Positions 11,783-11,819 of a stretch of 18,749 nt of DNA are shown in pieces (position 1 is the first letter of the stretch; each line of letters begins with the position of its first letter). The notes below the pieces were generated by a model. That model was not told the origin of the DNA. It searched no databases and was given only the letters and a program-made list of their open reading frames with translations. Position numbers and translations under genes: made by a program. Location of the stretch: the IMG/VR virus record IMGVR_UViG_2703718769_000007. The stretch is one strand, 5' to 3'. The DNA comes from a virus. Lineage: Duplodnaviria; Heunggongvirae; Uroviricota; Caudoviricetes.

Positions 11783-11794
11783 ATCAGCCTCCTG

Positions 11795-11819
11795 AAAATA
11801 AAAAAACCGCCGCAGCGGT
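11795..11819 (-). terminator. Intrinsic-terminator-like hairpin with U-tract between terminase large and the capsid gene
   Basis: Plus 11806-11819 ACCGC-CGCA-GCGGT. On the minus strand it is followed by TTTTTTTATTTT (11805-11795), then AGGAGG and the GTG start. Confidence 0.55.

Follow-up and report, generated by a model that had tools for sequence, protein, structure and literature searches.

A candidate conditional terminator abutting the capsid gene ribosome-binding site in the late operon of a Stx-type lambdoid prophage

The intergenic gap directly before the capsid gene in an 18.7 kb stretch of prophage DNA (the window; all genes relevant here lie on its minus strand) contains a hairpin and U-tract, here called T1, that is probably a conditional intrinsic terminator within a Q-dependent late operon, stopping unmodified polymerase and being passed by polymerase loaded with Q. 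A functional terminator is the most likely role because a conserved GC stem joined without a gap to a U-run is needed by an intrinsic terminator and not by a stabilizer or an enhancer. An earlier, sequence-only reading of this DNA had proposed an internal late-operon terminator that also insulates the structural genes from moron transcription, with a processing or stabilizing 5' structure as the alternative. Its main interpretation is still the most plausible one, in that the sequence features, the strand and the place in the late operon all agree with an internal terminator, although the idea of moron insulation is weak. Terminators of this kind, internal to a late operon, are already annotated in phages HK97 and N15, and in this sense T1 is nothing new.

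On the minus strand, the T1 stem-loop ACCGC-TGCG-GCGGT occupies positions 11819-11806 (5' arm 11819-11815, TGCG loop 11814-11811, 3' arm 11810-11806), with a folding energy of -10.3 kcal/mol (z = -2.57 versus shuffles) and a terminator score of d=35. The U-tract has the form T7-A-T4 (T7 at 11806-11800, A at 11799, T4 at 11798-11795), and its first T pairs with A11819, the tract starting within the last stem pair. A single base, C 11794, separates this tract from the capsid Shine-Dalgarno sequence AGGAGG (11793-11788), which is followed by the 5-nt spacer CTGAT and the GTG start codon (11782-11780), and so the minus-strand gap reads ...CATGG ACCGC TGCG GCGGT TTTTTTATTTT C AGGAGG CTGAT GTG. The sequence-only reading had described an ACCGC/GCGGT stem with a U-tract ending 1-2 nt before AGGAGG; the spacing is indeed 1 nt, and the boundaries it gave are exact, namely the first base of the stem and the last of the Shine-Dalgarno sequence. 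T1 lies on the gene strand in the non-coding, 63-nt gap that extends from the terminase stop at 11846 to the capsid start at 11782, and no T-run is found 3' of the hairpin on the opposite strand. Intrinsic terminators were defined here by a GC-rich stem of about 5-14 bp, a loop of 3-8 nt and a U-tract of at least 6 directly 3' of the stem, and T1 shows a GC stem with a tetraloop and a U-tract of at least 6, being moreover intergenic and co-directional with the genes. The stem can be extended by two G-U pairs to 11821-11804, giving 7 pairs when G-U is counted. With only 5 Watson-Crick pairs plus these extensions and about -10 kcal/mol, however, the stem is short, and termination efficiency may therefore be only partial. 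The structure of the 81-nt region around T1, taken as a whole, is not unusual (z = -0.46).

Chance is a poor explanation for such a site. We scored terminators using our own implementation of a d'Aubenton-Carafa-type score, with energies from ViennaRNA, and counted d>0 as positive. Over both strands of the 18.7 kb, this strict score yields only 3 positive sites, all of them on the coding strand and within two intergenic gaps of approximately 60 nt: T1 (11818-11807), which is the best at d=35.2, and two sites before the major tail gene, T2b (5719-5705, d=20.4) and T2a (5756-5742, d=4.9). The mean number of sites in 40 dinucleotide shuffles was 0.55 at d>0 and 0.03 at d>=20, with none at d>=35. 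A lenient consensus scan of the window showed no overall enrichment (15 matches versus 16.9 expected), and its top two matches are T1 and the tail-gene site. Taken together, strict score, shuffles, strand, position and conservation lead us to reject a chance origin of T1. Applied to phage lambda, the same strict scan returned d=25.0 at 40618, 29.6 at 38606, 19 and 9.7 near 35810, and 7.9 at 27543, which we take from the lambda map to be tR2, the oop terminator, timm (about 35810) and tI, respectively; none of these sites scores above T1 (35.2). The scan missed lambda tR', and is hence specific with incomplete sensitivity.

Long-tailed Stx1a-, Stx2a- and Stx2c-converting phages match the window at 91-94% identity across about 90% of its length. 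On the strength of this similarity we take the window to be the late operon of a lambdoid prophage of the long-tailed Stx type, because the Stx2a phage LC567840 (92% identical) has the same operon downstream of Q, stx2AB and the lysis genes. The Q antiterminator is annotated upstream of the operon in LC567840, and a Phage_antiter_Q gene stands upstream in the same operon of a Serratia relative; the Q gene itself is outside the window, and the evidence for an antiterminator comes from related phages, both close and distant. Genes for lysis, terminase, head and tail lie on one strand, T1 being located among them. Pfam domains identify a holin (18421-18206), an endolysin (18201-17668), a KilAC/ANT-domain gene (17394-16699), Rz (16569-16003), a TonB_C-domain gene (15425-15084), an HNH endonuclease (14710-14345), the small terminase (14097-13504) and the large terminase (13507-11846; TerL_ATPase and TerL_nuclease), the stop codon of which is 63 nt before the capsid start. 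Directly downstream of T1 is a 645-aa protease-capsid fusion (11782-9845) with Peptidase_S78 and Phage_capsid domains, as the sequence-only reading had anticipated, and its homologues carry the name phage major capsid protein. The portal (9633-8269), head-tail joining genes (7214-5744), major tail protein (ATG 5682, end 4966; Phage_tail_2, Phage_TTP_11 and Ig domains, with the same annotation in a relative), tail chaperones (4999-4272) and tape measure (4224-982) follow, again on the minus strand and by Pfam.

Several features of this operon are recorded as observations in their own right. The 231-aa KilAC/ANT antirepressor-domain gene (16699-17394, minus strand) sits within the lysis cassette, between endolysin and Rz, and is missing from that place in the Stx2a phage LC567840. 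The order of the head genes (8269-13507, minus strand) is unusual, with the large terminase followed by the protease-capsid fusion and then the portal; it differs from the HK97 order of terminase, portal, protease and capsid, and is common to relatives across Enterobacterales and in Alphaproteobacteria. In the Serratia relative L116, two terminator-like sites (993-1105, plus strand) lie directly 3' of Phage_antiter_Q and before the holin genes, which is the late-promoter/tR' layout expected for this phage family.

Between Rz and the HNH and terminase genes, the product of the TonB_C-domain gene (E=1e-14) is small and bears a lipoprotein-type signal (…LVMGC), and the gene resembles a moron. The gene has an extended -10 promoter-like site at 15470-15443 on the minus strand (ATGACC-16-TAGAAT, with the TG present), and the strict scan finds no terminator-like site between this gene and T1, which is the first to be encountered, 3.2 kb on. 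A moron is a cassette of promoter, gene and terminator inserted in a late operon, and T1 likewise lies between late genes. Unlike a moron terminator, however, T1 follows an essential terminase gene rather than an inserted accessory gene: the gene directly upstream of it is the large terminase, and three phage genes, namely the HNH endonuclease and both terminase subunits, stand between the moron-like gene and T1. In addition, T1 is kept in relatives with different upstream content, and a specific link to the moron is therefore weak. Insulation from moron transcription, as put forward in the sequence-only reading, thus finds little support at a distance of 3.2 kb.

The same survey of promoters bears on whether T1 might end a small RNA, either a prophage late-region RNA of the HnrS type or one that binds Hfq and derives from the 3' end of the terminase gene. 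A hairpin followed by a U-tail is an Hfq-binding module. Moreover, the late regions of lambdoid prophages in EHEC encode Hfq-binding sRNAs that end at intrinsic terminators (PMC13502914). Nevertheless, we consider such an origin extremely improbable: the consensus scan finds no promoter-like site upstream of T1 on its strand apart from one 3.6 kb away, the only strong one on the coding strand of the window, and this scarcity of promoters also counts against the terminator reading. A search of Rfam 15 returned 0 matches at gathering thresholds for the window and 0 at E<=1 around T1, and at the tail-gene site only sub-threshold matches to Trp_leader and isrK at 19 bits (cut-offs 41-50). Nor does the window contain complementarity of at least 11 nt to the hha ribosome-binding site that HnrS targets. 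HnrS (EcOnc10-12), judged through complementarity to its hha target, was rejected as a candidate, the longest complementarity to hha -45..+25 being 10 nt, with none near T1 or the tail-gene sites.

Conservation of T1 extends well beyond close relatives. The stem is kept in all 80 of the 80 IMG/VR relatives with capsid proteins 96-100% identical, which differ in the loop (TGCG or TCCG), at the base that adjoins the stem on its outer side and in T-run length (6-8). For a more distant set, a profile of diverse homologues was used to obtain 28 loci from one-genome-per-species contigs. A CCCGC-N3-6-GCGGG hairpin followed by T5-8 is present in 19/20 gamma- and betaproteobacterial loci for which upstream sequence could be used (capsid identities of 51-77%); in these same 19 loci the hairpin is the best-scoring site of the 8-kb locus, with the stem ending 19-26 nt before the capsid start. 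The hosts were Enterobacter, Kluyvera, Buttiauxella, Citrobacter, Atlantibacter, Phytobacter, Kosakonia, Pantoea, Rouxiella, Erwinia, Proteus, Entomohabitans, Phlomobacter and Diaphorobacter, and Arsenophonus has a mismatched version of the hairpin. A T1-like element is absent from 6 loci at 47-50% identity (Alphaproteobacteria and one unclassified MAG), and the element is therefore dispensable for this head module. The 251-bp junction itself is carried by 1251 of 5426 complete E. coli genomes, in as many as 7 copies.

Per-column entropy in 14 diverse Enterobacterales other than E. coli is lowest in the stem arms (0.06 and 0.00 bits) and the rest of the T-run (0.07 bits), followed by the linker (0.16 bits) and the Shine-Dalgarno sequence (0.29 bits), and is far higher in the loop (0.94 bits), the upstream spacer (1.02 bits) and the spacer between the Shine-Dalgarno sequence and the start (1.05 bits). 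This alignment-based pattern indicates purifying selection on the terminator core, that is, the arms and the T-run. Moreover, none of the relatives carrying the element has a gap between the stem and its run of 5-8 T, and such adjacency is, as a sequence feature, the hallmark of a terminator and not of a mere U-rich enhancer. Informative covariation in the stem is scarce because nearly all relatives have CCCGC/GCGGG: a single pair distinguishes the E. coli lineage (A-U) from the rest (C-G), and the two top pairs are swapped in Arsenophonus, these differences having been judged by inspection because the MAFFT alignment shifts some of the hairpins by a column. Conservation taken by itself does not distinguish termination from some other function of this hairpin and its U-run.

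The entropy profile also shows the linker and Shine-Dalgarno sequence to be conserved together with the T-run, as might suit a translation-initiation context in which the U-rich tract serves as a platform or enhancer for ribosomal protein S1 and the hairpin shields the ribosome-binding site from what lies upstream. U-rich leaders act through S1 to enhance translation, both the capsid and the tail site place a long U-rich stretch and a perfect AGGAGG before the most abundant virion proteins, and lambda gene E is preceded by T7-ACGGGA-T7-ATG. This explanation, which is not exclusive of a terminator role, nevertheless leaves the invariant GC stem abutting the U-run unexplained, and distant relatives start the same gene without any U-run; we regard it as distinctly unlikely.

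The arrangement seen at the capsid gene is repeated before the major tail gene, as the sequence-only reading had maintained. There the T2b hairpin ACCCGC-CGCGT-GCGGGT (5720-5704), followed by T6GTTAT, makes up a minus-strand site at 5694-5720 (d=20.4; -11.0 kcal/mol), and its U-tract (T6GTTATC, then AGGAGG at 5692-5687 and ATG 5682) stops 1 nt short of the AGGAGG of the major tail gene. Just upstream of T2b and overlapping the stop codon of the tail-completion gene is T2a, AGATCAC-GGT-GTGATCT plus T7 (5735-5757, minus strand; d=4.9; -7.0 kcal/mol, z = -2.92). A weaker copy of the T1/T2b layout, T3 (AACCGC-TGAG-GTGGTT plus T7; 4243-4263, minus strand; -8.5 kcal/mol, z = -1.52), adjoins the tape-measure gene, 6 nt before its GGAG (ATG 4224); T3 falls below the strict-score threshold, and its counterpart in a close relative (L001) scores d=19.7. 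Among relatives, the tail-gene site is present in Salmonella (d=48) and, with the different stem CCGGC/GCCGG, in Serratia, and is absent in two others. We rejected the idea of a shared cassette upstream of the hairpins (CATATAACCCTG at the capsid site versus CATAAACCCTG at the tail site): CATATAACCCTG is the terminase C-terminus plus stop codon and is not conserved in relatives, and a 7-mer common to two 60-nt regions equals the chance expectation.

A second structure lies on the far side of the capsid gene, where a GC hairpin with no U-run (9809-9830, minus strand; -18.9 kcal/mol, z = -4.56) begins 15 nt after the capsid stop, so that T1 and this 3' hairpin bracket the gene. As a separate matter, the 3' hairpin overlaps the AGGAGG/GGGAGG before a 73-aa ORF (9800-9579) that is annotated as hypothetical in relatives. 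Bracketing by T1 and so stable a downstream hairpin is what a segmental stabilizer or processing element might look like: RNase E would cut the late transcript within single-stranded, AU-rich stretches, and flanking hairpins would shield the capsid and tail segments. Protection from exonucleases or from RNase E scanning would raise the steady-state level of capsid and tail mRNA. A hairpin of -14 to -23 kcal/mol is found at the same place, with unrelated sequences, in most of the relatives checked (L082-L102), and in some distant relatives this place holds a full terminator; lambda, N15 and HK97 likewise have hairpins right after their capsid genes, and the flanked genes are exactly those whose products are needed at the highest copy number. 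On the other hand, a stabilizer needs no adjoining, strictly conserved U-run, yet such a run is present in T1, T2a and T2b alike. Were the U-run the cleavage site, moreover, the T1 hairpin would end up on the terminase fragment and not on the capsid fragment. In addition, the 3' hairpin is also present in alphaproteobacterial-type loci that lack T1, and the two elements are thus separable. Both parts of this proposal, segmental processing and the gain in steady-state mRNA, therefore seem to us unlikely, if less so than a pure translation context. Any such role of the T1 sequence in RNA stability or translation would be compatible with the terminator role.

Returning to T1 as a terminator, the closest precedent is HK97 (NC_002167), in which features labelled 'putative terminator' are annotated before the protease gene gp4 (3309-3335), after the capsid gene gp5 (5192-5213), before the major tail gene gp12 (6692-6719), before the tape measure (8398-8422, equivalent to the T3 position) and at 7443-7462 and 13799-13824. 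These occupy the same positions as in the window relative to the protease/capsid block and to the major tail and tape-measure genes, and share the layout of hairpin, T-run, Shine-Dalgarno sequence and start. A blastn alignment of window positions 5709-4303 with HK97 6705-8117 (65% identity) starts inside T2b and inside the terminator annotated in HK97, and for this reason we assign T2b, by alignment, as the orthologue of the HK97 terminator at 6692-6719. T1, in contrast, is positionally equivalent to HK97 3309-3335 and N15 5980-6004 but cannot be aligned with them. The head genes of HK97 are only distantly related to those of the window, which has a protease-capsid fusion and, before T1, the large terminase gene in place of the portal gene. 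Moreover, T1 has an uninterrupted T7 where HK97 has TTAATTTTT, and T2a has no HK97 counterpart.

Lambda and N15 offer a further parallel. In the D-E intergenic region of lambda, GGCCGC-CTGT-GCGGC plus T7 (6101-6121) stands 21 nt before gene E, and the stem_loop at 5980-6004 in the D-E intergenic region of N15 is annotated as a 'putative rho-indep. transcription terminator'; the N15 record places putative Rho-independent terminators before and after the capsid gene and after the major tail gene. Like the window, both phages have Q-dependent late operons in which a GC hairpin with T7 is followed by the capsid start about 20 nt later and by a second hairpin after the capsid gene. They differ in that their head modules are not homologous to that of the window, the upstream gene encodes a decoration protein, the Shine-Dalgarno sequence is weak (GGGA) with two T7 runs flanking it, and no such element precedes the major tail gene V. 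Separately, a hairpin and T-run lie directly before the ribosome-binding sites of lambda (L111) J and lom (15466-15505 and 18920-18965), and the layout of a terminator abutting a ribosome-binding site is therefore not limited to capsid and tail-tube genes. Our literature search on the 3' ends of lambda late transcripts and on capsid-flanking stem-loops found nothing relevant.

Like the window, the P22-like phage L has a Rho-independent terminator predicted within a late operon that has a single promoter and depends on antitermination, although the phage L terminator is at the downstream end of the procapsid gene module and not directly before the capsid ribosome-binding site (PMC8022706). Terminators inside phage operons under antitermination control have been on record for 25 years, their roles being described as unknown, and in their 2020 account of the phage L genome Casjens and colleagues state that the roles of lambdoid intra-operon terminators 'are not known', proposing either that they stop spurious, non-antiterminated transcription or that they cause partial termination (PMC8022706). 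The second of these options (PMC8022706) would make T1 a partial attenuator that lowers all downstream transcription even in lytic growth and sets the mRNA ratios of the operon. By our reasoning, however, this would bring capsid and tail mRNA down relative to terminase mRNA, which is the opposite of the stoichiometric need, and Q-loaded polymerase is termination-deficient (PMC9388147). Partial attenuation hence appears very unlikely.

For the conditional terminator that we favor, this literature suggests how the condition might be imposed. The effect of tR' and of other terminators overridden by Q or N, like that predicted for T1, is set by the antiterminator on the polymerase (PMC7547250 and PMC9388147). 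In a structural account, Q forms a nozzle that precludes formation of the terminator hairpin, the RNA exit channel of Q-loaded polymerase being narrowed and extended (PMC9388147). tR' comes directly after the late promoter and itself constitutes the regulatory switch, whereas T1 lies at least about 7 kb into the operon. By analogy, we infer that termination and Q-dependent read-through occur at T1. Unmodified polymerase, arising from leaky or spurious initiation or from an upstream moron-like promoter in the lysogen, would allow the T1 hairpin to form and would release the transcript within the U-run (approximately 11800-11795), so that the capsid ribosome-binding site would never be transcribed. 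The major tail gene would be silenced likewise by T2a and T2b, and the tape-measure gene, to a weaker degree, by T3. Once Q had been loaded at the late promoter, no hairpin could form in the exit channel; Q-loaded polymerase preventing hairpins in this way, the late transcript should pass T1 to T3. Halting would be confined to unmodified polymerase and would take place just ahead of the strongest ribosome-binding sites of the operon. In the read-through mRNA, the U-rich stretch and AGGAGG would then form the 5' flank of a very strong translation start. The selective benefit would presumably be to silence the most strongly translated structural genes outside lytic growth.

A broader rule can be sketched, although we put it forward tentatively and think it unlikely to hold: in lambdoid phages, very highly expressed structural genes (capsid and major tail) would be gated by a Q-overridable terminator abutting the ribosome-binding site, the capsid gene being closed in addition by a stable 3' hairpin, with silence in the lysogen and long-lived mRNA segments after induction. 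If this rule were true, the gate would keep assembly-competent subunits strictly silent in the lysogen, where defense systems may also sense them, the flanking hairpins would carve long-lived mRNA segments after induction, and the intra-operon terminators discussed for phage L (PMC8022706) would be given a function.

The T1 family makes a clean test case for such elements, being very canonical, strongly conserved and located at the ribosome-binding site of the most abundant virion protein, and its junction is found in about a quarter of complete E. coli genomes, Shiga-toxin phages included. As a conditional insulator, T1 would hold down the leakage of structural-gene expression from the many lambdoid prophages that pathogenic E. 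coli carry; if its role is instead in mRNA stability or translation, it would help to explain how very different amounts of protein arise from a single transcript. Either outcome refines known biology and opens no new mechanism.

Three smaller observations concern coding sequences. The capsid GTG overlaps a minimal ATG-TGA start-stop (11779-11784, minus strand; AGGAGGCTG ATG TGA, read as A-TG-TGA around the GTG), an overlap kept in nearly all close E. coli relatives, with a plain ATG in more distant ones. One E. coli record contains a 1079-aa protein (P0001) with terminase, protease and capsid domains, the ORF of which spans the terminator gap; this fusion is probably due either to a mutated stop codon or to an artefact, from sequencing or an indel, in the T-run region. 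Finally, the 353-aa gene after the portal (7211-8272, minus strand) contains a 162-bp (54-aa) tandem repeat at 7680-8047, with 2.3 copies at 95% identity, and has a weak, below-cut-off CBM_5_12 match near its C-terminus. It is named inconsistently in relatives, as 'portal protein' or 'fibritin', and possibly encodes a head decoration or fibre protein.
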